From positions 47,967,847 through 48,031,846 of the forward strand of contig CP154954.1 of assembly GCA_039621445.1 (NCBI GenBank): a stretch of 64,000 nt of DNA, in the 5' to 3' direction. Every line of letters begins with the position of its first letter. Position 1 is the first letter of the stretch. This document shows, piece after piece, positions 1 to 63,690 of the stretch. Under the pieces are notes generated by a model, which was given only the letters and a program-made list of their open reading frames with translations, did no database searches and had not been told where the DNA came from. This stretch comes from Euglena gracilis. Its lineage: Eukaryota. Position numbers and translations under genes: made by a program.

Positions 1-63
1 GCCAATAAGTATCCCCAGTGGGTCTTTGCCGTTGCAGCCCATCCCCCCCCCCCCCGCGCACAC

Positions 64-216
64 CCGGAGGACACTTCAGACTCCGCGTCCACGAACCGCA
101 AGTGCTTGGCGGGCATGCCCCGAGCCAGAGGGCCCTTCGGCGTGCCGCAGGGGAGCCGGAATGTGGAGCCCCGCCGCTCCTCGATGAGGCTGCCGACGTC
201 CCCGAACAGCGGGCCG
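64..216 (-). CDS. Exon: end of CNB-B and C-terminal extension (LGPLFGDVGSLIEERRGSTFRLPCGTPKGPLARGMPAKHLRFVDAESEVSS)
   Basis: Continues FELLL-GP in frame, like PKA-R 'FE..LGP'; AG acceptor at 217-218 and GTGTG donor at 63. Confidence 0.75.
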
Positions 217-3200
217 CTGCCCCCTCATCGGGTTCGGCGCTGGCATGGCCATCGGGGTTTCATTGGCGTCCTCAATTCAGAAAAACGAAAACGCGACAAA
301 CATAAAATCGTAACAAGGAAATAGGCAGCTGGGGGGCAAAGAAGCAACTCTCGGATTTGTGGTGGTGATGAATGCATTGGCGTTGGGGGAACCCACCCAA
401 AAATGGAGAACAAAAAATGAAAAGTGCTGTCCGCAGAAAAAACAACAACACAAAAAAAACATCTGAGCCCTTTTTAGATGATACATATTCAGGTGTTATT
501 TTTTCTTTATTTGCTCCTGGCCGTTGCTCTTGTAGACATACTCTCGCCAAGCCCACCTGTGAGGATTCCTAAATGGCGGGGTAGAACGGAGCAGCAGTCA
601 TATCCTTCCTTTGCAGCACTACAGAGCGATAATATATATGATATATTTAGAGAGGTTAGGCCACTTTCAATGAATCGGTCTTTGGCGGATGGTGATTGAA
701 AAACAGGCTGTCGGAAAGAGAGAAAGAAAAATACAGCACTTGCAGCTGCGGATGGAGCAGATGAGCTTCTGCGAAAGAAATCTAATTCGCACCACTTGCA
801 TTTGTATTGTTGATATTATTTGACGACCACTTCTGCTGTGGCATCATTCGTTTGGCAAACGTCTTTGAGCGTTATTAATTCTGATGTTGTTTGTCGGAGA
901 AACATGACATAAATTCTGTGCAGCTTCGAAAGGCATTTGGAATGAGAGGGCAGCAGTAGTTCAAACGTCTTGCGGTCCAACTTGGCAACATGCATCTGTT
1001 GAGAGGGGCGGCGGTGGCAACGGTGCTTTTAATCTAAAAGCGTTGCGGCCATACCATTGCTCTGCGACCCCCGGGGGGGAGGGGAGGGTCACTTTCCACT
1101 CTGAAAAAACCAGTCAGTCACTTTACCCCCTGGGGGGGATCGGCCACTCTTGAATGATGAGGAGGAGGCAATGAAAATCTATCAAAAAGTCTCAAAAATC
1201 AAAAAAAAATCGGGCGCCTTCGGCGCCAGCCCAGCCACTTTTTCATTTTCGGGCCCACCCCCCCCGGGGGGGGGGTTCTTGGCCAGAAAACCAGTCAGTC
1301 ACTCTGAAAAACCAGTCAGTAACCCCCCCGGGGGTGGGGTGGGATAGGTGTTAAGCAATGGTATGGTTGTGGCACATGACCACGCCATTTCATGATGGTC
1401 GCATTCTTTGCTGCTGCCTGGTTTAAACTTTTGACTTTTGAGAACACCAATCAATCGAAATCGAAGCCAGGATTGGGCAATAATCTGCGATACCTGCCGA
1501 TGTGTGAGCCCCTCTGAGCAGCACTAAGGCTTCTTTTCTGTTTATGGCCTGCGCTAACTTCGCTTCTGGCCCAGTTTGCTGTGTAGTGAGTGGCCACGTA
1601 CCCCTTACACCAGTGCTCTTGTGTTGCTCCGCCTGGCCGGATGAGTAAGTCTGGTGTATTTCCAGTGTGTGTGAGCCCCCCCCCCCCCCGGAACAGTCAT
1701 CTGACAGGTTGGCGAATAACGGCGGCCTTGACAACTTTCCATCATACAGGTTGGCAGTTACTGGGGACCCTGACAATTTCCAGGGAGGTTCTCCTTTTGG
1801 CTTTTGGGAGGGGACAAAAATTTTGGGGTGCCCCCTACTGACTTTCATAATTTGGATATAATCAAATACCAATAATATATCAATTTATTTGTCAACCCCC
1901 GAAATTTTCCCGCAATGCGCAATTATTACCCAAATTGGATCATTTCTCATAAAAAACTGACAGGTTCAACCTTTCAAGCCAATTACATTCGACCTGACAG
2001 GCTTGGGGACACCAGGAACATGACAACTTCCAATCATAACTTGTTGGCTGGTTCCGGGGACCTTGAAATTTCCTGGGTGGAACCCTGACAGGCTCGTACG
2101 GTCATGCCAGTTTCAGGGGGCGGGGGGGACATTTATAATAGACCTCTCCATGCCTGGCACCAAAGATAATGCTTCTGCGTCAGGGTTCGATATAAGGACA
2201 GGTGGGGGGGGGGTGGTCCGGACCCCCCCCTGCGGGCCCGGAGGGGGGGGGGGGTGGGGGGGGGCACCCCCCCCCACCTAAACAGGTGCGCGGTCAGGGT
2301 GGCCGAATTTTCGGCCCGGCGCGAAGCGCCGGGCCGAAAATTTTTGACCCCCCAAAACGACCAAAAGTGCCATTTTGGGCACTTTTTGGGCAAAAATGTG
2401 CCAAAAATGCAAAAAATTTTCGGCGCGAAGCGCCGGAGGAAAAAATTGACCCTTTTTTGGGGGGGTCAATTTTTGCCCCCGAGGGTCGGTCCGGACCCCC
2501 CTGGCAGGTGGGGGGGGGGGGGGGGGTCCGGACCCCCCCCTGCGGGCCAGGAGGGGGGGGGGGGGGGGGGGGGACACCCCCCCCCACCTAAACCATGTAC
2601 GCCCTCCTTATATCGAACCCTGTTCTGCGTGTGGAGATGACAATTTCATGCAGACCAATTAAAGCCCTTTACAAGAGCACCTGCGTGGATTTTCTCATCG
2701 AGTTTTATTGATTGCATGAACGAACCCTGGAAAAACTTGTTAAAATACACCAAAGATGCACAGATGCCACAGCACTTTGTGGACACCCCCAATTCTTTTC
2801 AGCCTCACTGCTAATTTGAAACGATGGCAGATGTGTATCACCCTGTATCACCCTGCCATCATACGAATTCGTCACCTGTTGAGTCTGTGGCTTCGATTCA
2901 CTATTCCGAAATACGTACATATATGAGCATGATTTATACCTTGCACACATCTTTTGCAGGCATACTGGGGTGACAGCCTTGCAGTCATAGAGGGGTGATT
3001 GGCCTGTCAGAAATTCGTTCTCCCCGATCAGTGTCAGGCGCCCAAGTTTGCGGATCTGCCAGAGAAATGGGGTAGAATGGAACTTGGCCAAACACATAGT
3101 CCATTAGAGAAGGAAAAGGCGAGGCAAATCGCACGACATAACAGAGCGAGTCAAAACAGCGGCGCATAAAGATATGAATGTTGACAAATGGAAAAACCAC

Positions 3201-6200
3201 AGCATGAAACCATTCCCACCAATTTGGTGGAGCTGAATCGATGTTGGAATTAGAAATTATCCAAAAGTTTCGATATTTTCTCTAAATTTTGTATTGTTAA
3301 TAATCCGGTGACAAATCAAAACAGTTTACAGGAGAGAGCATAGAAAATACTGCAAAAAATATGCATTCGCACTGATACCAGAACTGACCCTATGACGTCT
3401 GACAGGGTGGGCACTGGCAAACCCAATTGCAACGCAACAGACAGAGCACACTGGAACGCTCGCATCCGCTTCATCCGTGTGCTTGCGGATTGTGGCAAAC
3501 CCTTGGAGGACCAGATAGGCAGCACAGCAAGGCTGTGAGAGTGGGGGAGGGTTGCGGTCGGGGCACGGTCCATAGGAGGAGGGTCTCCACCCTCCTCAAA
3601 AGTCGGTCGACACCCTCGTGCACTGTTGTTCGAGGTATACGGGTGCCCTGCATGTGCAACTCCCTTTTGTTGCCGATGCCCATTCGTACGCAACTGTTCA
3701 GAGGGCCCTAAAATAACGAAATCCCATGTGTTGCGTATGTCCTGTGTGTGATACCTGAATGCATGTGCGCAGGAGGAGGTTCGAGACCCTCCTCGAATGT
3801 CGTTTGAGTCCGTTTGAGGAGGGTCGAGACCCTCCGCAAATGTCGTTCAAAATCGTTCTAAGCCCCCACTTTGAGCTCAAACGTTCGAGCTTGAACCTTT
3901 TCCCCCCCGTGAGATTGGAGAGGCACAATCATGCGGCTGCATAGACCCCCTCTCACAAAAAACCCCCAGGTTATAATTTGGATGTCAGGGTCCATGGTGG
4001 TATTTAGGAGGGTCATTAGTTGGGCAAATCTTTCGAAATCTAAAATCAATCCTAACGCGCCTCGCAAGGCTTTAAAACTCCCTATGAGGCATTTTAGGGC
4101 TCATTGCGCAATGGACGCCTTATTTACATACTTCTTGAACCAATTTCATCCGTTTTGTGATTTTTGCAACATTTCTGCTGATTTTTCCTCTTTATTTTTT
4201 TCTTTCTTCACAGCTGTCGACCTTTCTTCGTTGGGTCCAAATTTGACCCCTAATTCTGTCACACAACTGTTTCTAGATGATACAAACACACACCACTGCC
4301 ACCTCCCCACAACTTCATAAATGCCAACCTTGACACCCTCCAGACCACGAGGTGCAACTTGTGATGGGCTAATTTTTTTTCAGTTTCGGGAAGAGGGTGT
4401 GTGATGGGGGTTCCATTATGGGGGGAGACCAATACATATTGTCTTTGGCCACGAATGCTAAACTTTCGCAACGCCCACTCAAGAATTCGAAAAATTTGTG
4501 AAGCGATGTATTTTTGATTTGGCAACTCAGGCATCAACAATGTGACAACCTCCCAGGGTGGGAAGGTGACAACCTCACGAGGGTGATATTGCCAGGCGTT
4601 GCTTAGCGACCGCCGCGGGGGGGGGGGGGTCCAGCTCAGAGGCTGGAAATTTTGAGACGGCTGAGAAAAAGGCCGCTGGCTGCCCCCACTCTTCCCCATA
4701 TCGGAGTCCGCCAGCTGGAACTGGGCCTGACCCCAGTCGAACCGGGTATAAAAAAAAATCGAAACGCCAAAAATACCCAAGAAGCTGCCAAATATGCAAA
4801 AAATCGATCTTTTGACCCCTTATTTGCCCTGGCCAGCCCAAATCCGACCCTTTTTCGCCCATTTTTCGCCCATTTTTGCGCACACAAAAGCCAAAAATCT
4901 GTCATTTTCCAGCCGCCCTTCCGGCGGCTGGAAAATAACTCGTCGATGAGATGGGGGGGAGGGGGGCCGGGCAGGGATGGATGGGAAGCCTTGAAGGGGG
5001 GGGGGTGGGTCGGACCCCCCCCCTCCCGACACGGAGGGGGGGGGGTCGGACCCCCCCCCTCCTACCTCGAAACTGAGGGGGGGCCGAAATTTTTTCGATT
5101 TCATGGACGGGCAAAGGGCCGGAAATTGGGTCGGAATCGGTCAAAAAACCCTGATTTTTCTTTTAAAATCGATCCAAAAATGCTCATTTTTTGAAATTTT
5201 TTGAAGTTTTTGGGGGAAAACACCAACACATCAAAAAATGGGCAATATGGCCAAAAGTCAGCAAAAGGGTGTTTTTTGCTCATTTTCCGGCGCTGCGCGC
5301 CGGAAGAAAATGATGTCAAGGAGGGGGGCCCCCCCCCCTTCTAGGGGGGGGGTGGTCCGGACCCCCCCCCCTCCGGACCCCCCCCTACCATTATCCCCTT
5401 ATTATCTCTACTGGTTGGTTGTTTAAGGCATCTGGTCACTTCAGCTAAATGTTGTCACTGTCATCCATGAGTGCTAGGAACCTGAAGGAGGTGGGCCCCC
5501 CCCCCCCCAACAGTGGTCCACTTCACCTTACAGGGGGGTCGGAACCCCCCCCCCTACCACCTACCTCAATACCGAAGGGCTTCCCATCCATCCCTGGGGC
5601 CGGGGTTGGAAAACGGCTGGAAAAAGTCTACTGGCTGGCTGGAGGCCCCCTTGGTTGTGCTAAGGCAGGAGGTCCCCCCCCCCGGGAGGGATGGGTCCAC
5701 TTCAGCCTAAACAACGCCTTGGCAGGCAGCAACACCTATCACTCAGACCAGTCATCCAGGAGGAAAACGTGTGTAATTGCCCCGAGAGCAGGTGACCGGC
5801 ACCTGCCCGGCCCGCAGCAGGTGATCCTCCGGCTGCAGTCGGACCCGGTCGGGGAGCAGGGCCCTGCGCCTGCCAGGCGGCACACAGCAGGAAAGGACAG
5901 GCCGGGGGCAGGTGGCATTTGTCGCAGCGAGGGGTCCTGGGGGAAGGCCTCCACGAGGTAGTGCAGCTCCTGCAACGACAGCACCTGTGAGGGGGGTTGT
6001 GTTTATCGCGTGGGGTGCCAACCTGGGCTGAAATAGGGGCACAATGGGACGGAACTGGTCTTAAAATCATTTCTTTGCTACCCGCCCCCCCCCCTGGGCA
6101 ATTGTCGCGCGACAAATTGGGCAGCACGGAGGGGGGTGACAATTGCCCGGGGGCGTCAATTGCCCTGGGGCGTCAATTGCCCACCCAGTAGGCCACATGA

Positions 6201-9200
6201 AAAACCAAATGACCAAAAACGCCATCTAAAACACAAATGAATGCGCAAAAATGCAGCTATGGTTGTGATATTGTGCAGAGCATTTGGTATGTGAAAGTTC
6301 TCAGCACGTTGTAGCAAAATAGAAGATCAATCGAGTCGTGTCAGCGAAAAGAAAGTTCACAGACATCTTTTGTGGGGGGGGGGACAAATTGGGCAGCACA
6401 GAGGGGGGTGACAATTTCCCGGGGTGACAAATTGGCCGGCACAGCCAATGGTGACAATTGCCCATAAACTTTTTTTTTAAACTTCAAGGAATCTGTGCGG
6501 AAATTTGTGCATAAATCGATTCTGAGACACGAGGTTTGATTTGAAAGGGTTCAAAATTTGTCTCTGACTTCGTTTACCAGGGGGGCAGTTGTCAGCCCTG
6601 TGCTGCCCCACTTTGTTGCCTCCCAAAATTACCCCTTTCCTTCTGCTGACCCGTTTGTTGGGCAACGGTTGCACTGCGCTTGGGGGAGGGCAGGTACGTT
6701 GCCTGTGGGGAACAGCTGGAAACCCCTTCCCCGCCTGCCGTCTCAGCTCAGGGACCCTCAGGGAGGTGGGGTTCGAGTTTGAGCAACGTATGCACACAAA
6801 ACGGCAGGGCGGAAGAACGCTGGCGGGCGCGGCGCACGTGGGCGAAGCTGGACTGCGCCAGGCAGCGCACGAACGTCTGGATGCGCTGCTTCCCGAGGAA
6901 CGCCAGCAGGCGGCGGTACACCTTGCGCTTCATCCCATACGTGCGCACCGCTGCGGGAGGAGGGCAATTTTTTTTTAAAAAAAGAAAAAAAGAAACGAAA
7001 TTGGAGGTGGGATTTGCAGGGCTGCCTGCAACCACAGTTTGCCAGAAAACGCGCAGGCGCAGCTGTGGACCCTTGCAGTTTGGGGGCTGCGTACTGTATC
7101 CCACCACTGCCAGTGTTGACCGTCAAAAGCGACCAGCACGAGGGCACACCAGTCTTGGCTTGGACGGTGGAGAGGGCGCTGGTGCAGTTCTTCATTGCGC
7201 GGCTTCCCAGCGTGTTGCCGGGTCCAGGCGGTGCACGTCTGCAGCCACGTGCATTCTTTTTTCCCTTGGCAGCTCGTGACGGTTTTTTTTTGACCCAGCC
7301 CAGCGGTCAAATGCCAAAATGGGGGGCAACCCATCTGTTCGGGAGGGGGGGTTGTTAACGGTGAAAGGAGGCCTTGCCACCCGGGAATTGTCAAACTGAT
7401 TCCGGTCGAATTGCCAGCGTCCCCAGCCCACCGTCGGGTGCGACTCCGGCCGCCGGCCACTCCGCCATTCCGGGGAAGCCGGCCACGGCACATCGCCTGG
7501 CCGGGGCCGAGCACCCGGACGAAGGTGCCGTTCACGTGGGACTCCGTGCCCGGCCCCGCCTTGCGACCCAGCCCCGAAAGGCAACACAGCCTCTGCCCCC
7601 CCACCCCCCCCGGCGAGGGGACGGCTCGGCTGGAAGGCAAGGCCGGCGCGCACTGCCCCTCCATGATGACGTAGAACCACGTGGTGGCGACCGGGGCCGC
7701 CCCTGCCGGGGGGGGGGGGGGGGGCTTGTGCTTCGGGGGGCCGGCCCATAACAGGTGCCCCCCCAAGGGGGTCGGTTTGGATGTGGGGTGGGATGCTTCG
7801 GCGTGCCCAGGCTTCTTTTCATGACCTCCAGGGACGCCCGAAGAGGAATCCCCAGGAAAGGCTCAACGGAGAGAACGCCATTAAAACAACCCTTCAAGCC
7901 CCCGTTCTTCATGATGGTCAAACTTGTCTTGCAAATTGCGGGTGTGTGCCGAGGTTTTTTTGCCTTGTGTGCCTCACAGGTCAAAACCTCAGCACTACAT
8001 CACCAGCAGTCAACAATTGGCAAAGAAAAATGAACGGGTCCGGCAACGTTTTTTCTTTGAGTGGCCTCAAAGTCCCTCAACGCTGATTCCTCTGCGTAAT
8101 TTACGTGACCGACAATGTTGTTGACATTTTTTTGTCGGAAATATCCAAAATATTGGAAATATTGGTAGTTTGACTCATGTCGGGGGTCGGATTTTTGACC
8201 AGCAATTCATCACCTATATCATCTCCCCCCCCCCCCGTCAACCCACCCCCTTCGGCCGACCAGCCAAACTGATCCTGCTTTGCCACCAGGGGTCGCAAGA
8301 TTCACAAGTGGATGGGGGGGAGTATGAACCCAGAGGCCCTATTTCCTGGGAGCCTCAGGAGTTGGCCTAAACCTCCAAAAACAGTAAAACAAAATCATAA
8401 ACATTTCTGGCGAAAATTCATCTGAAACGAATGAAAGGGCGTTTTTAAATTAAAAAAAAAGAAAAGGCGCTGGTAAATTATTGCCCTGGCGAAATTTGGT
8501 GCAAATTTTGCCAAGGAAATGCGTTTTCTCAACAATTTTGGAAGGGTCAAATTTGCAGGAACTGATACCCCCCCCCCCCGGAGACTGGGGTCAAGCATGC
8601 CTGAAAATTCAGCCTTGGTTCCAACCCAGCCAAATTTCCCTTTAAACAAAATTTTTTCTGCCACCCGGCAGGGGAGGGTCGAAAAGGTCTTGCTGCCTGA
8701 CCCTACCCCTTCCCTGCCTCGCGGTGGTGCGACACCTCTCAGAAAGGTAAGCTGGAACCCCCACGTATGGGAACCAGACTTCTTTTCACCAACCCCGGGG
8801 GGAGGGAGGTGCCTTGTGCCAGGGGTGCCTGCCCACAGTGGGCACCCCCCGGGGGTCGGTATTGGGTCCCGGTGCCCGCCGACGAAGCGAATATTCCGTC
8901 GAAAACGGCCATATTGCCTTCGGCGCCGGGGGGGGTGTGCCATAGCACCCAGCCCGAAGCTGGATTCCTCCAGGGGGGGGGGGTCGAAATGCCCTACCTC
9001 CCTGTCTGCTCCCAGCACCTGGAATCTGTCCACCGGCAAGTCGCCAAGAACCTGGGACCCTGGCAGTGGACCACAACGGCACCTCACACTGTTTGGGACA
9101 AATACGCACTCCGTTAACTTTCCCGGGTTGGGATCCCGTTTTTGAATTGCGGGTAACGTCCCACCCCTCCGTGTATGGAATGCCTCAAGTCAACTTTTTG

Positions 9201-12200
9201 AGAGGGAAGCCGACGGCAGCCACACCTTCCTCAAAGATCAGCGTCCCGGCCTCGAAGGTCACCTCCTGCAGGGCGTCGATCATTAGGTGCAGCTCCAGGC
9301 TGTCCATTTCGCTGAAGAGGTAATTGTCCCGAAGCGCCTGGGCCACAACGCAGAGCGGCGACGATAGGAGGCCGTGGGAAGCAGGGAGCAGGGCTGATGC
9401 CCGGGGAACGTTGGCAGTGCCTCACCACCGTGAGGAAGGACGCGGTGGGTCGGCCCGTTCCCGATGATTCGGAAAAAGGTGCGACAAAAACGGGCGATCA
9501 ACGCCGGAAAAAATGGTTCGGATAAACAGCAGTGAAAAAGAAAAAGTGCACCAATAATGTTAATATTTTTGATAATGATTTTGCATTTGATAAAGACACT
9601 GGTGCCTGCTCAGGGGATTTCACTCCGTTAAATGCCGAAGAAATGTTTCCTTCAGTCGGAATATCTCCAGCCGTGGCCGGCCACGGCTGGCCACAGATCC
9701 AGCCGCGGATGTTGAACCTGAACACTGAAAAGCACTGCGACAACAGTGAGTTCTCAAGAATGTGGCACTTGTGACTGCAATGGGTGTCCATATTCGTGGT
9801 AACTTGCAGCGCCCCAGCAACCCCAAAAAGCCGCCCAGCGCCTCGCTCAGGTCCCCACGTTTGTGAACCAGGTGCCGGTGGGCGGCTCTTTCGGTTAACT
9901 GAGGCCAATGCAACGACGTTGCCCGGCAATGGTTCAATTTTTGTTCATGCGGATTTAGCCGTAACCCTTCCTTCAAAAAATAAACTCATCAGAGCTTACA
10001 CGGTTCAGGGGTCTGAAACCACGGATGACGGCGATGAAACAATGGCCAGCTGACTGCGGCCGGCCGTGCCCGAAGGCGATCCAAACATTCCACCCAGTGA
10101 AAACAGATGACAAGGTGGTTGGGTCGCCAGCTGCCACCAACTCGGATGCAACATCCCACAGCCATCTCCCCAACCCAGGCACGCACTACACCCGCCTCCC
10201 TGGCAGTCTCGAAAAGCTTTAAACATTAAAGTAAACAATTCCAGAAGAATATCCAAAAAAAAAAGAGGCACCACCCCACTGAGAGCTCAGACAAAAAGAC
10301 CGGAATGATAACAATTTGGCTCATTCTGGGGAGAGAGTGAGGTCAATGGAGGAAATTTTCCCAGGAGAATTTTCGAACCACTTTGTTGGCTTCAGAGAAA
10401 AAATTTTGTCCTCTGTCCTCCCACTTCTGTCCTCCTTCCCTGCATATGATTTAGTACTGGTCCGTTCCCCTCTTTCAAAAAAAAAAGCAAGAGGAGAGAA
10501 AAAGATGGAATTTGTTACAGACAGACAATCCCCCTGGTAGACAATCAAACCCCCGGACCCCCGGCCGCCGGGAAGCGGGGGGGGGGGGGGGCATACGTGG
10601 ATGAGAGCGAAGGTGTCGTTGGCGGACTTGGGGAAGGCGGGCAGCTTGAGAGCGGGCGGGGGGCGGAGGCTGGCGATCTGCGCGATGACCTCCGTGCGGC
10701 GGGCGACAGGGCGCGGCTCGAAGGCGGTGGCAGCCTCCTCTTCGGAGTCGGTGGAGGCCTCCCCGTCCTGGGAGGCGGACCGAGACCATTCTGAACCGCC
10801 AAGGAGCGAGGGGCGCATAGTCTTTGCACTGGGCGGGTAGCCCCCAAACAGGTGTTTTCTTCGGACCCCCCAAAAGACGTCATTGGAGTTGAGGTTTTTT
10901 CGGTGAGGGAAAACGTTGAGAGAAGCACCGTCCCATGGAAAGAAAGAAAGAAAGAGTTCAACTCCAGAGCGTCCCTCAACCACCCCACTCAGAGGCGGCT
11001 GAAAAAGTTGGGCTGACACGAAAAAGGCCGCTGGCTGGCACTGGACGCCCCCGGGTTCAAATCCCGCCCGGCACCAAAGGGGCGGGGAGAGAGGGGACAC
11101 CCAGAGGCAGTCGCCCAGCCGGTACTGCGCCAGCCCCGCCGCGCTGTACGCCTCGTCCTCGACCGCCATGAAGGGGGCCGAGCCCCGGTCACTCATCGTG
11201 GGGGGCGGGCCAATGGCCGGGAGGGAGCCCGGGCCACGGGCTGGTACCTGCGGGGAGCCGGGGGTCACGGGTCGATGTAAGGGCAAGTGGGGGTAAACCC
11301 CCCCCAGTCCAGGAGGGGGCTATGCCCCCCCCACATACAGTGGCGAGGTCGGGGTGACCGATTTTTGGCTGAGCGCGAAGTGCGGGGCGGAAAACTTTGC
11401 CCCCCCCCCGCCCCAAAAATCGGCCAAAATGCCGTTTTTGTTTAGGCAAGTAACTGCAAAAAACCAAAACAAATTCGGTGGAAAGAAAAATATGTATGAC
11501 CTTTTTGGAGGAGGTCCTGGGTACCCCCAGGTGTCGGCCCAGACCTCCCTTTGGTTCTCTACCCTGGACACCATACTTGTGCCAAACTGTGGTAGGCACC
11601 CACTTCCCACATAGATTCACTTAGTGGGGGGAGGACATTTTTCCCAGGCCCCAAACCCACCCACCCACTTTTTTCAAAAAGCCACCCACACACAAACCCC
11701 CAGGGGGGGGGTCAGAGGGAGGGTTACGCTAGGAGGATGCTCCGTAGGAGGATGCTCATGAGCATCCTTGAGTGTCGCTCGAGGATGCTCATGAGCATCC
11801 TCGAGCGTCACTCGAGGATGCTCACGAGCCTGTCTCCAAATCGTTCTGGAGGGCAAATCCCTTCTGTTGCTCAACTGTTCGAGGGCCCCAAAAATAACAA
11901 AATCCCTTGTGTTTCCAAGTCGTTTTGGGGGGAAATCCCTTGTGTTTCCAAGTCGTTCTGAGGGGCAAATCCCTTCTGTTGCTCAACTGTTCGAGGGCCC
12001 CAAAAATAACAAAATCCCTTGTGTTTCCAAGTCGTTTTGGGGGGCAAATTCCTTGTGTTTCCAAATCGTTTTGGGGGGGACAAATCCCTTCTGTTGCTCA
12101 ACTGTTCGAGGGCCCCAAAATAACAAAATCCCTTGTGTTTCCAAGTCGTTTTGGGGGGAAATCCCTTGTGTTTCCAAGTCGTTCTGAGGGGCAAATCCCT

Positions 12201-15200
12201 TCTGTTGCTCAACTGTTCGAGGGCCCCAAAAATAACAAAATCCCTTGTGTTTCCAAGTCGTTTTGGGGGGAAATCCCTTGTGTTCCCAAGTCGTTCTGAG
12301 GGGCAAATCCCTTCTGTTGCTCAACTGTTCGAGGGCCCCAAAATAACAAAATCCCTTGTGTTTCCAAGTCGTTCTGAGGGGCAAACCCCTTGTGTTTCCA
12401 AGTCGTTTTGGGGGGCAAATCCCTTCAGTTGTCAACTGTTCGAGGGCCCAAAAATAACAAAATCCCTTGTGTTTCCAAGTCGTTTTGGGGGCAAATCCCT
12501 TGTGTTTCCAAGTCGTTCTGAGGGGCAAACCCCTTGTGTTTCCAAGTCGTTTTGGGGGGCAAATCCCTTCTGTTGCTCAACTGTTCGAGGGCCCAAAAAT
12601 AACAAAATCCCTTGTGTTTCCAAGTCGTTTTGGGGGCAAATCCCTTGTGTCTCCAAATCATTCTGGAGGGCAAATCCCTTCTGTTGCTCAACGGTTCGAG
12701 GGCCCAAAAATAACAAAATCCCTTGTGTTTCCAAGTCGTTTTGGGAGGCAAATCCCTTTTGTTTCCAAGTCGTTCTGAGGGGCAAACCCCTTGTGTTTCC
12801 AAGTCGTTCTGAGGGGCAAATCCCTTCTGTTGCTCAACGGTTCGAGGGCCCCAAAATAACAAAATCCCTTGTGTTTCCAAGTCGTTTTGGGGGCAAATCC
12901 CTTGTGTCTCCAAATCGTTCTGAGGGGCAAATCCCTTTTGTTATTCAACTGCTCGAGGGCCCCAAAATAACAAAACCCCTTGTGTTTCCAAGTCGTTTTG
13001 GGAGGCAAATCCCTTTTGTTTCCAAGCCGTTTTGGGGGCAAATCCCTTGTGTTTCCAAGTCGTTTTGGGGGGCAAATCCCTTCTGTTGCTCAACTGTTCG
13101 AGGGCCCCAAAATCCCTTGGGAAGACATGTGTTTCTTTTTGTGGTCCCGTGATACATGCAAGCATGACAGTAGGAGGATGCTCGAGATATCGCTCAAGGT
13201 CGCTCAAGGATGCTCATGAGCATCCTCGAGTGCCGCTCGAGGATGCTCATGAGCATCCTCGAGTGTTGTCGGAGGTCGTTCGAGGTCGCTCAAGGATGCT
13301 CATGAGCATCCTCGAGTGTCGCTCGAGGATGCTCATGAGCATCCTTGAGCGACGCTCGAGGATGCTCATGAGCATCCTTGAGCATGCTCAAGGAGCATCC
13401 TCGAGTGTGCTCAAGGATGCTCATGAGCATCCTCGAGCGACGCTCAAGGATGCTCGCTAAGCCCCCCCCCTCTCGAGGGGGGGGGCTTAAAAGCGCTCAA
13501 GGATGCTCAAGCTTGAGCGCTCGAGCTTGAGCATCCTCCTACCGTAACCCCCCCGGGGGTCAGACACCCACCCACGCACCCACCCAAAATCATGCCAAAA
13601 CCACCAAAAACACTGAAAAAATTATCCGGCTGGGCAAAAACCTGACCCATGACGCACCCGGGGGGTGAGGCGCACTCTTGAAAACGCACCCACCCCCCGC
13701 GGGGAGGGGTCGCACAGGTGTTAAGTGAATCTACGGTCTTGAAATAAGGCCTGGGTTTATTTTAATCGCTACTGACCGGGGGGTGGTCGCCATTTTGGCA
13801 AATATCGCTACTGACCGGGGGGGGGTCGTTAGACAAGACCGGGGTCAAAAAATTTTTCTCCTGCTTCACCTCAAGGCGAAAAAAAGTTTCCTTTGTCTGA
13901 CATGGCCACAACTCTCCGCTTCATGATGAAAAAAGGGAGAAACATGCAGCAATCAACAAGGCACCAACACATGGGAGAACTTGTTGACCAGGTTCAAAAT
14001 CAGCCATGAAAGTTATTTTAAAAAAAGGCTGGAGGTAAGGACGTGAATCACCTGGAAAAAGATCGCTACTGACCAGGGGAGTGGTCGTTGGACAAGGCCG
14101 GTCGTTGGACAATGCGGGGGGGGGGAGGTATGACTTATGACATTTGAAAATGATTTTTTGGGGTTTTATGCTTGTCTGTGCAGAGACAGCCGGTGGGATG
14201 GGGGGTCGGGAACCAGAGTAAATTTTAAGATATGACGCCAAATTTGCCCTGTACACTTTCTTCGAGACAGGTCAGTACACACAAAAACACTGGAACTTAT
14301 GAGAATAGGTTAGCCCTGATGTATGCAAAGGTGTGCTCAGAAGAATGTGCTTTTTTCCAAGGACTGCATATGATGTGTGTTATTTGCTGGTGCAATGCCC
14401 ATCAGGTTTTCATTTTTTTGCGGTTTGTGGCCCGGGGGGGGGGGGGGCTATCCTGGCCCCGATCCCCCAGGAGATGGGTGTTGGGCCGAAAGGAGGGACA
14501 TTTTTTCTCTGCAGCGCCAAAAACTGTATTCGCTGAAATGTGCCCGCCCTCTGGCGACGGTAATGTCCATTGCAAAGGCCTTCCCATGCCGCTCCGTCCA
14601 AATCCCCCTTCAGGGTCCATAAGACAGGAGATGAGGCAGGGGTCCAGAGCAAATGGAGCTGTGCACAGTGGAGATGGGAGGGGAGGGCGATTGTTGTGGG
14701 GCTGGCTTTATGTTGTAGTGTTCTACGCAAAGAGAGCCGGGGGGGGGGGGTGCGAATCTGGGGGCTGTAAACTGTGGTCAGTCAGGGGAACGCACAGAAG
14801 GTCAGCTGGAAGGGATGGAGGGCCCGGTCACAGGGGGTAGAAATGCCCCGCTCCACCGACGTCGCGAACCACCACATTGGGTGGGGGCCACTCCACCCAA
14901 TGCCAGCACTTCCCATGCTGCGCCTGCCAATTTTCCCGACGCCGCGGTTGCTTGGCACATCGTGGTAGGGATCCGATTTTCCCGGATTTGTGCGCAACCG
15001 TGTCTTTCCCACCATCACCCCCCCCAAACCCAATGAACACCAAGGTGACAATCTAGACGGTCCGAACACCCCCTGTCATTGGGCAGGGGCGTTCATTGGG
15101 CATGGGGGGGGGTACCATCACCCCCATCGCCAGGAGGGGCCCGGCGGGGTTGATCTGGCGGATGATGCTCCACAGGGTGTGGGTGCCGAGGGCGATGTCG

Positions 15201-16177
15201 AACGTCTCATCGCTGGTGGGCAGCGACCCGCCGTCCCAGCACAGGTCCAGCTGCTGCAGCGTCGGCCCGGGCCGGCCCCAGGCTGGCCAGGGGGCGATGA
15301 GGGGGGAATCCTCCTTAAAGCGCCGGGCCAAACCTTTTTACCCCAAAAATGACCCAAAACCGCCATGGGCACTTTCTGGGCAACGTTTTGTCAGACTGCC
15401 CAAAATATCGGCACAAAGTGACGGAAAACTGAATCTTTGAGGCAGTCCCCCCCCCCGGCCGGCCACCACCCAGCGGGGGGGAGGGAGGCCTTGCGAAAGG
15501 GGCTTCAGACGGTCGAAACCACCCCACCCTCCTTCCTGCCCAACCCTCTGGGGGGATGCAAGGTCCTTGTGGCCGAGTTGTGCAGAAAGTGGTCTTTTCC
15601 AAAGTGCATCCAACAGGAATGTTGTTCTGCGTTTGTGGGGCAATGAGTCCAGCACTGTGCGCGGGACATTGAAGAACAAAAGCCTGCCCAGCCTCTTCCC
15701 CACGACCACGTGGTCTGCTGTTCGTTAACACCTCGCCAAACCGTTCGTTTGGCGGTTCCTTTCCTCAGAAAGAAGCCCATTTCCCACTCAAACCCGAGGC
15801 AAAAGATTCGCCGCAGCCCCAGCCCCGGGGGCCGGCCCAGCGGGAGAGAGCCCACGATGTTGAGGAGCTCGGAGGTGGTGCTGAGGATGGGCCCGATGAC
15901 GAGGTGCTTGATGTGCGTGGCCTCCAGCGCCACCGCCTGGCACACCGCGGAGTCTGCGTCCTTCAGCCCCCGCCAGGCGGTGGCGAGGCGGCACCGCAGC
16001 CACACACAAAAGGCGGCCCAAACCCGATCCAAGTTGCTCAAAGGGCCTTCCCAAGAATTACTGGGGGTGGGGGGGGGGGTGGCGTCCCTGCTGGTCTGAG
16101 TACGCAGCCACACCAACTAGCAGTCACATGGAACATGATGACTCATGTGGACATGAACACAACGCATCCCACACACA

Positions 16178-16223
<46 letters not shown>

Positions 16224-17579
16224 ACACCACACCACACCACACCACACCACACCACACCACACCACACCACACCACACCACACCACACCACACCACACCAC
16301 ACCACACCACACCACACCACACCACACCACACCACACCACACCACACCACACCACACCACACCACACCACACCACACCACACCACACCACACCACACCAC
16401 ATACAACACAAACAAACACAACACAAATATGCACGCACGCACACACAACATGCACACACTCAACACACACTCATCACACAACTAGAGGCACCGTCACACT
16501 GCTGCTCATCAGATATCCTCATCAGATAGGGGTGAAACGCGTCTGGGGCTGATGGACACAGCCTGACCCAAGCACTGCCAGTTTGTGTAGATTTGCCGGC
16601 AGAGGGACACTTTGCTTGAATATTTCGTACAGTTAGCCAAATAAAATAGTTCACCAGCCTCCTCAATAGAAGCCTCAATCAGCACACCATAAACCGAAGC
16701 CAACGTCATGGCAAAACATCACACACAAATGAAATCTTTTGATAAGAAAGAAAAAGAAAAAAGAAGCTGCAGAAAAGCGCGACGGCTCCCAGGGCGCACA
16801 GAAAATGCAGCGTCTCTCAGGGCGGAAACTTGTGCTGGAGGTCCTTGAGCACGGCACTGGTCAGGGTGTGGATCGGCCCGTGGCTGGCGTGCTTCCACAC
16901 GTGGAGGTGCAGCCACTCCAGCGAGGGGTAGGGGTCGGTGGGGGGCACCACTGAGAAGAGGGTGTCGTCCACCTCGGGACGCAGGCCGGACCAGCAGGTC
17001 GCCGGCCAGCATGCAGCCACGCACATGCATGCGCACATGCCCGCGTGACAGAGAAACCCACATGTGTGCACGCACGCACACACCCACCCACCCACACACA
17101 AATAACAACACACACCAAACACAACAGACATTCGAGCGCACAAAGAAAATGAGCGCGTTCACACGACGTGGTTGCAGACATGTTGGGTCACGGCCTGGAA
17201 AGTGCCTCGGCCAAGGAAGTACAGCTCCAGGCGGCGCAGGCCAAAGCAAGTGCCAAGCAGGGTGTGGACGAACTTGTTGGTCACCTCCCCGAAGAGGACG
17301 CACGCCTGCAGCCGCGAGAAACGAGCGATGTTGGAAGCCAGGATGGTTGCTCCCAGCGGGCGACCCAAAGAGATGTTGCGAACCAACTCTCACAAACACC
17401 TTTCACCACGGGCAAACACAACCAAACCCACCCAACACATCACACACAGAGAGAGAAGGACACAGATGCACACACAGGCACACGCACACATGTACACGTG
17501 CACACAGATGAGCAATACGCATAAGCACCACATCCATCTCATAAACAACGCACGTGCACAGAACACAGGCACACACACA

Positions 17580-24542: not shown

Positions 24543-63690
<39,148 letters not shown>

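Follow-up and report, generated by a model that had tools for sequence, protein, structure and literature searches.

Gene Structure and Expression of Exon 11

The window analyzed in this study is a stretch of 64,000 nucleotides (nt) from contig CP154954.1 of Euglena gracilis, and the element of interest is a short open stretch on its minus strand that encodes the second ligand pocket (site B) of a protein similar to the regulatory subunit of protein kinase A (PKA-R). This stretch is a genuine exon of a PKA-R-like gene and is expressed. Its pocket may plausibly be a decayed relative of the purine nucleoside-binding pockets of kinetoplastids, situated in a protein that would be insensitive to cyclic AMP (cAMP). 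All positions given below are those of the window.

The open stretch spans 30 codons, from 3055 to 2966 on the minus strand, which encode residues 277–306 of the gene product, and is referred to as exon 11. It is bordered by GT-AG splice sites, with AG at 3057–3056 before it and GT at 2965–2964 after it. A word search with a 43-amino-acid (aa) piece of the exon returned two proteins: P0001, a 130-aa open reading frame on an assembled-read contig that uses the same genomic frame as exon 11, and P0002 (eukprot:EG_transcript_6716), a 548-aa protein from transcript data with the Pfam domain PF00027. Exon 11 was 100% identical to residues 277–306 of P0002, where the exons at 3532..3452 and 995..954 adjoin it. 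The initial annotation had assumed exactly these splice borders, and it had named absence of the exon from the mRNA as one of the outcomes that would speak against its reading; the transcript-derived P0002 includes the exon. The "EG" of the transcript name presumably stands for Euglena gracilis by naming convention, and this reading fits the non-conventional introns of the gene.

Exon 11 was recognizable only inside the spliced protein, because short exons are invisible alone. Of the 159 stop-to-stop frames of at least 28 aa that start below position 14000 on the minus strand, 150 were compared with Pfam, among them the 132-aa frame that encloses exon 11, and none matched cNMP_binding; the 43-aa piece had no match in PDB by phmmer. 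The flanking sequences that were originally thought to resemble those of kinetoplastids held up in part. Ala-Lys-Leu-Asp-Arg and Phe-Glu are encoded by the exon that follows (995..954). VVGR, however, sits at 4313 on the minus strand, in a frame within an intron of 2270 nt, and does not occur in the protein, and instead of Leu-Gly-Pro after Phe-Glu the mRNA reads Leu-Leu-Phe-Gly-Asp.

Exact-match mapping of P0002 on the window, followed by junction solving, yielded the exon map of the gene. The gene runs on the minus strand from 11196 to below 63 and comprises at least 13 exons. Residues 1–368 were mapped, and the last ~180 residues of P0002 are encoded beyond the window start. The window and the transcript differ at 5 of the 368 mapped residues (41, 70, 71, 335, and 341); the window copy is an allele or a near-identical copy of the P0002 gene. 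GT-AG borders can be assigned to eight of the 12 introns, including both beside exon 11 (396 nt upstream and 1970 nt downstream). The introns after exons 4, 5, 8, and 12 (105, 283, 92, and 747 nt, respectively), which lie on the minus strand at 7545–7649, approximately 7226–7499, 5851–5942, and 210–953, have no GT-AG solution. Non-conventional introns of this type are known from euglenids.

The coding part of exon 1 (11101..11196; this and all following exons are on the minus strand) encodes residues 1–32, starting from Met, and exon 2 (10597..10767) encodes residues 33–89, with an inhibitor-like site at 10701..10687. The first CNB (cyclic nucleotide-binding) domain, CNB-A, starts in exon 3 (9226..9337, residues 90–126), which is followed by exon 4 (7650..7702, residues ~127–144) and exon 5 (7500..7544, residues 145 to ~159), the latter with non-conventional introns on both sides (105 and 283 nt). 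The cassette of site A (residues 163–177, 7207..7163) is in exon 6 (7150..7225), whose start is ambiguous (7216–7226) because the intron before it is non-conventional. Exon 7 (6838..6950, residues ~182–219) encodes the end of CNB-A and the long B/C helix, exon 8 (5943..5984) residues 220–233, and exon 9 (5803..5850), which a non-conventional intron of 92 nt precedes, residues 234–249. The second domain, CNB-B, is divided among the remaining exons: exon 10 (3452..3532, residues 250–276) encodes its β-strands 2–5; exon 11 (2966..3055) encodes β-6, the site-B cassette (residues 287–301, 2981..3025, with the Glu290 codon at 3016..3014), and the start of β-7; exon 12 (954..995, residues 307–320) encodes β-8 and helix αB with Leu-Asp-Arg...Phe-Glu; and exon 13 (63..209, residues ~320–368) encodes αC (324–335), Phe336, and the start of a disordered tail. 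The end of exon 12 is ambiguous (954 to 958) because the next intron is non-conventional.

Domain Organization and Predicted Structure of the Gene Product

P0002 matched the Pfam family PF00027 (cNMP_binding) twice, with an E-value of 2.2e-21 and 76 bits in the two stretches (gathering threshold, 27.5 bits). In a phmmer search of PDB, its residues 37–329, including the inhibitor-like site, aligned unbroken with mammalian RI-alpha (E = 1.2e-25, 93.8 bits). The matches to PKAR of Trypanosoma brucei (6FLO and its site-A mutant 6H4G; E ~1e-21) and Trypanosoma cruzi (6FTF and 6HYI; E = 1.7e-17) followed, and that to the PKA-R of E. gracilis (6RSX) was weak (E = 1.5e-11, 47 bits). The Pfam matches, the RI-alpha alignment, and the structure predicted with AlphaFold2 all placed a tandem pair of CNB domains C-terminal to a linker, such that the polypeptide begins with a short N-terminus and the inhibitor-like site, continues with CNB-A and CNB-B, and ends in a long, disordered tail rich in Ser and Pro.

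The inhibitor site of PKA-R, located upstream of CNB-A, has the form Arg-Arg-x-(Ser/Thr/Ala/Gly)-hydrophobic. In P0002, Arg55-Arg56-Thr57-Glu58-Val59 aligned on the pseudosubstrate of RI-alpha, with Glu at the P0 position. Glu at P0 was also found in P0013, a second record of the EG_transcript series, whose site reads Arg-Arg-Ala-Glu-Val (residues ~62–66). That both EG paralogues have it reinforces the impression of a non-standard regulator. No Arg-Arg inhibitor-like site was seen in the alignment of P0015, another close relative.

The AlphaFold2 model was built on an alignment of 46 sequences. Its confidence was high for residues 71–335, with predicted local distance difference test (pLDDT) values above 88 and mostly above 90. 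In CNB-B, the model has a cassette helix at 288–293 (pLDDT above 90), αB at 314–321, and αC at 324–335. Downstream of αC, nothing is ordered in the model and no αD lid element is predicted. The model adopts the extended conformation of the catalytic-subunit-bound holoenzyme, which is a feature of the prediction and no functional evidence. Its best fold matches were holoenzyme-state RI-alpha chains, with target-normalized template modeling (TM) scores of 0.70–0.74; the scores were lower against ligand-bound T. brucei PKAR (~0.43), T. cruzi PKAR (0.40–0.42), and ligand-bound RI-alpha (0.40). The fold search was rejected as evidence of kinship, as the ranking of TM scores mirrors conformation.

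Given the Pfam matches, the PDB alignments, the alignment of the inhibitor site, and the AlphaFold2 model, the predicted gene product is a PKA-R-like paralogue that is distinct from 6RSX. Mammalian RI-alpha (1RGS, 2QCS, and 6NO7) is both its best PDB sequence match and its best fold match. RI-alpha differs, however, in that it has the canonical Ala and Arg in both sites, binds cAMP, and possesses a dimerization/docking domain and a pseudosubstrate with Ala. Similar to P0002, PKAR of T. brucei and T. cruzi (PKAR1; 6FLO, 6HYI, and 6FTF) has its tandem CNB domains after an Arg-Arg-x-x-Val site and has no dimerization/docking domain. Different from these PKARs, P0002 lacks a leucine-rich repeat (LRR) N-terminus, possesses the long disordered C-terminal tail, and has Glu instead of Thr at P0 of the inhibitor-like site. 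6RSX, which is from the same organism according to its PDB title, shares the tandem-CNB fold and is a distant paralogue by its E-value; its cAMP dependence is taken from the PDB title. The literature also contains the remark that Euglenozoa are without a cAMP-dependent PKA.

Comparison of Site B with the Nucleoside-Type and Canonical Pockets

The canonical cassette of PKA-R has the consensus F-G-E-[LIV]-A-L-[LIMV]-x(3)-[PV]-R-[ANQV]-A (quoted in PMC10354285). In the nucleoside-binding PKAR of T. brucei, as Ober 2024 (PMC10959531) describes it, Glu311 and Glu435 replace the cassette Ala, bind the 3' and 5' hydroxyl groups of the ribose, and would clash with the phosphate of cAMP. Thr318 and Asn442 are found in place of the Arg, Val319 and Val443 are in place of an Ala, and the purine is capped by Tyr370 and Tyr482 (PMC10959531; PMC6440977). 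The ribose contacts named there for cassette B of the T. brucei and T. cruzi structures are Gly, Glu, and Glu (G432, E433, and E435). Moreover, site B is described as needing an αD lid, (K/N)YxYY, for high affinity, and the Y484A/Y485A substitutions as causing an 82-fold loss of affinity (PMC10959531). The T. brucei site-B string that the initial annotation had given was identical to that of the 6FLO chain in the alignment.

A full scan of 1.84 billion representative sequences identified 1607 relatives with E-values up to 0.001. The best 150 of these were analyzed, which yielded 165 tandem units spanning both CNB domains; the comparisons below leave out P0002 and its two closest relatives, P0013 and P0015. 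Units with Glu at position 4 of the site-B cassette were classified as Glu4 type and those with Ala4 and Arg11 as canonical. There were 71 Glu4-type units (including P0103, which looks like a misaligned canonical unit), 77 canonical units, and 14 of other kinds. The consensus of the Glu4 type is sharp: [VI]-G-E-L-E-F-[LI]-x-x-H-x-x-V-A-D-V. A lid motif, [YF]x[YF]Y, within 30 residues past the conserved Gly was found in 61 of the 71 Glu4-type units, in none of the 77 canonical units, and in none of P0002, P0013, and P0015.

The 15 residues on which the initial annotation had based its claim of a kinetoplastid nucleoside-binding signature are residues 287–301 (3025..2981), in which Glu290 indeed occupies the Ala position and the phosphate-binding Arg is gone, with Pro297 at its position. 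Gly287 and Glu288 are present, and both are invariant in all 46 aligned proteins. P0002 matched the Glu4 type at 8 of the 16 cassette positions (0, 1, 2, 4, 5, 6, 14, and 15) and the canonical PKA-R consensus at 3 of 11 defined positions (Gly, Glu, and Leu6). Over 37 ungapped residues from the cassette Gly, it shared 15 identities with T. brucei PKAR vs. 12 with RI-alpha. The departures from the Glu4 type were at Leu3 (66/71), His9 (67/71), Val12 (62/71), and Ala13 (68/71). In the loop half of the cassette, where His9, Val12, Ala13, Asp14, and Val15 are each conserved in 60–68 of the 71 units, P0002 has Gln295, Leu298, Tyr299, Asp300, and Cys301, respectively. Asp14 is the only consensus residue kept among the five; Cys15 occurs in 10 of the 71 Glu4-type units. 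The capping Tyr is absent, and Phe336, which ends αC near that position, is the only possible cap. No [YF]x[YF]Y motif was found within 30 residues after Gly322. Thus, the claimed signature stood for Ile/Val0, for the cassette helix half (Gly287, Glu288, Glu290, Phe291, and Leu292), for Asp300, and for the missing Arg, and failed for His9, Val12-Ala13, the capping Tyr, and the lid.

Site B might be read, as in the initial annotation, as a working purine-riboside sensor of the kinetoplastid kind, such that nucleoside-regulated PKA-like signaling would extend to euglenids. All three of the cassette-B ribose contacts named for the trypanosome structures are present in P0002 as Gly287, Glu288, and Glu290, which speaks against a decayed pocket; the Arg is absent, and Phe5, Leu6, and Asp14 are shared with the type. 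A working nucleoside pocket is conceivable because these three contacts are present and Phe336 at the end of αC, near the cap position, could cap a purine. However, the (K/N)YxYY lid and the capping Tyr are absent, and loss of the lid tyrosines alone costs T. brucei PKAR 82-fold in affinity by the account cited above. His9, Val12, and Ala13 (62–68 of 71 each) are Gln, Leu, and Tyr. With no lid, no capping Tyr, and no conserved loop half, and with Tyr299 in place of the small Ala13, site B is unlikely to sense nucleosides with high affinity as in trypanosomes. We thus hold a working sensor of this kind to be an improbable reading.

Binding of cAMP or cyclic GMP (cGMP) by site B through non-canonical contacts was also considered. 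The Gly-Glu pair and the overall fold are intact, and according to Bachmaier 2019 (PMC6440977) RI-alpha with a mutated B-site Arg (R333) is still activated by cAMP, with a half-maximal effective concentration merely 5-fold worse. Against this, P0002 meets only the 3 canonical positions noted above, has Pro at the position of the Arg, and carries Glu290, for which the case of Glu435 in T. brucei PKAR predicts a clash with the phosphate. Judged from these residues, cAMP and cGMP are very unlikely ligands of site B, and retained binding through other contacts would be hard to credit.

The Glu-for-Ala cassette with a YxYY-like lid is not limited to PKAR1-like proteins, being found in 71 of the 165 tandem units from the best 150 relatives. 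It also occurs in proteins of ~1000–1800 aa with 3–5 tandem CNB pairs and in fusion proteins that also carry PAS, HATPase, and protein-kinase domains. Examples beyond PKAR1-like proteins include P0004–P0012, P0014, P0017, P0062, and P0067, among others.

Site A and the Closest Relatives

In site A of P0002, Ser164 occupies the position of the ribose-binding Glu, which is near-universal elsewhere, and no Arg is present. Both glutamates of site A of the T. brucei and T. cruzi PKARs are lacking. The equivalent of Ser164 is common to P0002, P0013, and P0015. Among the best 150 of the 1607 relatives, P0013 (eukprot:EG_transcript_3122, 848 aa) and P0015 (729 aa) were the nearest to P0002, with 161–162 bits per unit vs. 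105 bits for the next best. P0013 is regarded as a paralogue of P0002 because it is a second record in the same EG naming series. The three proteins share the Gly-Ser start of the site-A cassette as well as Val/Ile-Gly-Glu-x-x-Phe-Leu-Thr-Gly in site B, and they form one clade with a support of 100. P0013 and P0015 carry Ala-Pro where P0002 has Asn289-Glu290.

No further members of this family were identified. A homologue search with the whole of P0002, in which 8000 low-complexity candidates crowded the search, returned P0002 itself and one weak match; one with residues 30–345 of P0013 returned P0013 only; and a protein cluster search returned only generic CNB clusters.

The features of site A and of the two relatives also bear on a nucleoside-sensing site B. 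As site A is without the universal Glu, a trypanosome-style allostery between two sites could not work, and the two-site relay of PKA-R probably does not operate in P0002. In addition, because Pro replaces Glu290 in both closest relatives, Glu290 may be unconstrained, which weighs against a functional pocket.

Phylogeny of CNB-B

The claim of kinship with kinetoplastid-type domains was assessed with several trees. In a quick tree of 77 whole units chosen from the 165, the P0002 family, the canonical units, and 38 Glu4-type units were recovered with supports of 100, 97, and 95, respectively, in the Shimodaira-Hasegawa-like approximate likelihood ratio test (SH-aLRT). The three groups met at an unresolved center; the split between the canonical units and the Glu4-type units together with P0077 and the P0002 family had an SH-aLRT support of 97. 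In a quick tree of 46 units whose A and B domains were separated, with each set serving as the root of the other, CNB-B of the P0002 family fell into a clade of 25 rows, which consisted of these domains, Glu4-type B domains, and P0077 (SH-aLRT 95). In a careful tree, for which 12 A domains served as the outgroup to 46 B domains, CNB-B of the P0002 family was nested in the Glu4-type B domains with a support of 99/96, next to P0044 and P0049 (96/98). The Glu4-type clade included P0137, whose best PDB match was T. cruzi PKAR (2.8e-62), and P0092, which has an LRR and two CNB domains and therefore the PKAR1 architecture. In these trees, B domains of the T. brucei and T. cruzi PKAR kind group with CNB-B of P0002.

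The cassette and the profile scores point in the same direction. Val/Ile0 was found in 65 and Phe5 in 69 of the 71 Glu4-type units, and both are present in P0002, P0013, and P0015, whereas the canonical units have Phe0 (77/77) and Leu5 (71/77). When scored with hidden Markov models (HMMs) of the Glu4-type and canonical CNB-B, P0002 obtained 56.0 vs. 49.2 bits, and the other two members 58.3 vs. 46.1 and 49.9 vs. 35.4 bits; the cross-score control for CNB-B leans 5 bits the other way. For CNB-A, an advantage of 18–31 bits with the Glu4-type HMM was rejected as evidence, as the cross-score control revealed a general profile bias of ~20 bits.

Several results weigh against descent from the Glu4 type. 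A tree in which CNB-B of the P0002 family branches outside every other B domain was not rejected by approximately unbiased (AU) tests (p = 0.245, ΔlnL = 14.5 for the quick tree; p = 0.177, ΔlnL = 10.0 for the careful tree). The family is on a long branch, with a stem of ~1.0–1.3 changes per column, so attraction artefacts in the trees are possible. Moreover, 38 Glu4-type units formed a clade without the P0002 family in the whole-unit tree (95), whereas the careful tree nests the family beside P0044 and P0049; the family may therefore be either sister to the Glu4-type units or nested among them.

These results would also fit Glu290 being a chance or convergent change in a degenerate cAMP-type pocket with no special kinship to kinetoplastids, in which case CNB-B would be a ligand-free pseudo-CNB. 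Such an origin is compatible with the AU tests, the long branch, and the Ala-Pro of the paralogues at positions 3–4, as well as with RI-alpha being the best whole-protein PDB match (93.8 vs. 80.7 bits for trypanosome PKAR). We nonetheless consider it doubtful, since all three members have Val/Ile0 and Phe5 as in the Glu4 type and unlike canonical units, the 99/96 support joins the family to Glu4-type B domains, and in CNB-B each of the three scores higher with the Glu4-type HMM. The kinship originally suggested is thus favoured by the trees (95 and 99/96), while the AU tests (p = 0.177 and 0.245) leave the alternative standing. Descent of the P0002 CNB-B from the Glu4-type lineage is therefore favoured but not proven by these sequence comparisons. 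If it is true, Glu290 would most simply have been retained in P0002 and lost on the P0013/P0015 branch.

Possible Function of the P0002 Protein

Although the matter is finely balanced, the reading that we prefer for P0002 is that its site B, although related to the nucleoside-type pocket, has decayed, and that the protein is PKA-R-like and insensitive to cAMP. CNB-B would most likely belong to the same lineage as the ribose-binding cassette domains of kinetoplastids. The helix half of the cassette would have been kept (Gly-Glu, Glu at the Ala position, and Phe-Leu), and the capping Tyr, the αD lid, and the loop half would either have decayed or never have been gained. Because the Arg is absent and an acidic side chain lies where the phosphate would be, site B is predicted not to accommodate the cyclic phosphate of either cAMP or cGMP, and it probably no longer senses cAMP. 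Its binding of a ligand that bears a ribose would be weak at best and would take place without a lid. In CNB-A the Glu that contacts the ribose is missing, and this domain probably binds no ligand at all. The gene product could then be a cAMP-insensitive and possibly ligand-independent PKA-R-like scaffold or pseudo-inhibitor.

Similar to P0002, PKAR3 of Leishmania is divergent and represents a second PKAR paralogue within its lineage. According to the PKAR3 paper (PMC11006142), PKAR3 binds nucleoside analogues and not cAMP, and no domain profile is recognized in its N-terminal region. By its published description, and different from P0002, PKAR3 has kept a nucleoside-type pocket with nanomolar affinity.

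A half-nucleoside cassette beside a cAMP-dependent PKA-R (6RSX) in the same organism would be either a natural intermediate or a decay product, and it bears on when and how the PKA of trypanosomes moved from cAMP to purine nucleosides. A bolder proposal is that the Glu-for-Ala ribose-binding CNB lineage predates kinetoplastids, that in Euglena it exists side by side with the cAMP-dependent 6RSX, and that EG_transcript_6716 belongs to it as a member without a lid, in which site B would still respond to a nucleoside or another metabolite that bears a ribose. We put this forward tentatively, as it is rather less likely to be right than wrong by a wide measure. If true, the switch from cAMP to nucleosides would have occurred before the split of euglenids and kinetoplastids, and P0002 would offer a natural intermediate for studying it.

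The sequence of P0002 is already public as a transcript, and nothing was found in print about EG_transcript_6716. A literature search by name found neither EG_transcript_6716 nor EG_transcript_3122. Euglena is not mentioned in the main texts of Ober 2024 (PMC10959531), Bachmaier 2019 (PMC6440977), and the Leishmania PKAR3 paper (PMC11006142), nor in 12 of the 26 supplementary files of the first, 4 files of the second, and 3 files of the third.

Other Features of the Window

No match to Rfam was found anywhere in the 64-kb window. Two groups of tandem repeats are located 0.6–2 kb upstream of the start codon of the gene: repeats of 112, 145, and 257 nt at 11831–13113, which are built from a ~34-nt unit, and repeats of 33 and 86 nt at 13190–13456. 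Repeated elements of long G and C homopolymer runs around a TCCGGA core with poly-A/T flanks are dispersed among the introns; they were found at 2196–2290 and 2470–2590 in the 1970-nt intron, and similar runs are present near 1250–1340, 4940–5060, and 5330–5400. CA-rich and (TG)n microsatellites of ~230–310 nt are at 16169–16480 and 26015–26284. Finally, an array of 13–14 tandem copies of a ~1.15-kb unit extends over ~40450–56000, with a spacing of 1125–1158 nt and one gap of 1952 nt. Most of its copies are 95–100% alike, its GC content is ~0.70 with a strongly negative GC skew, and its proline-rich frames gave repeated chance matches in tblastn.

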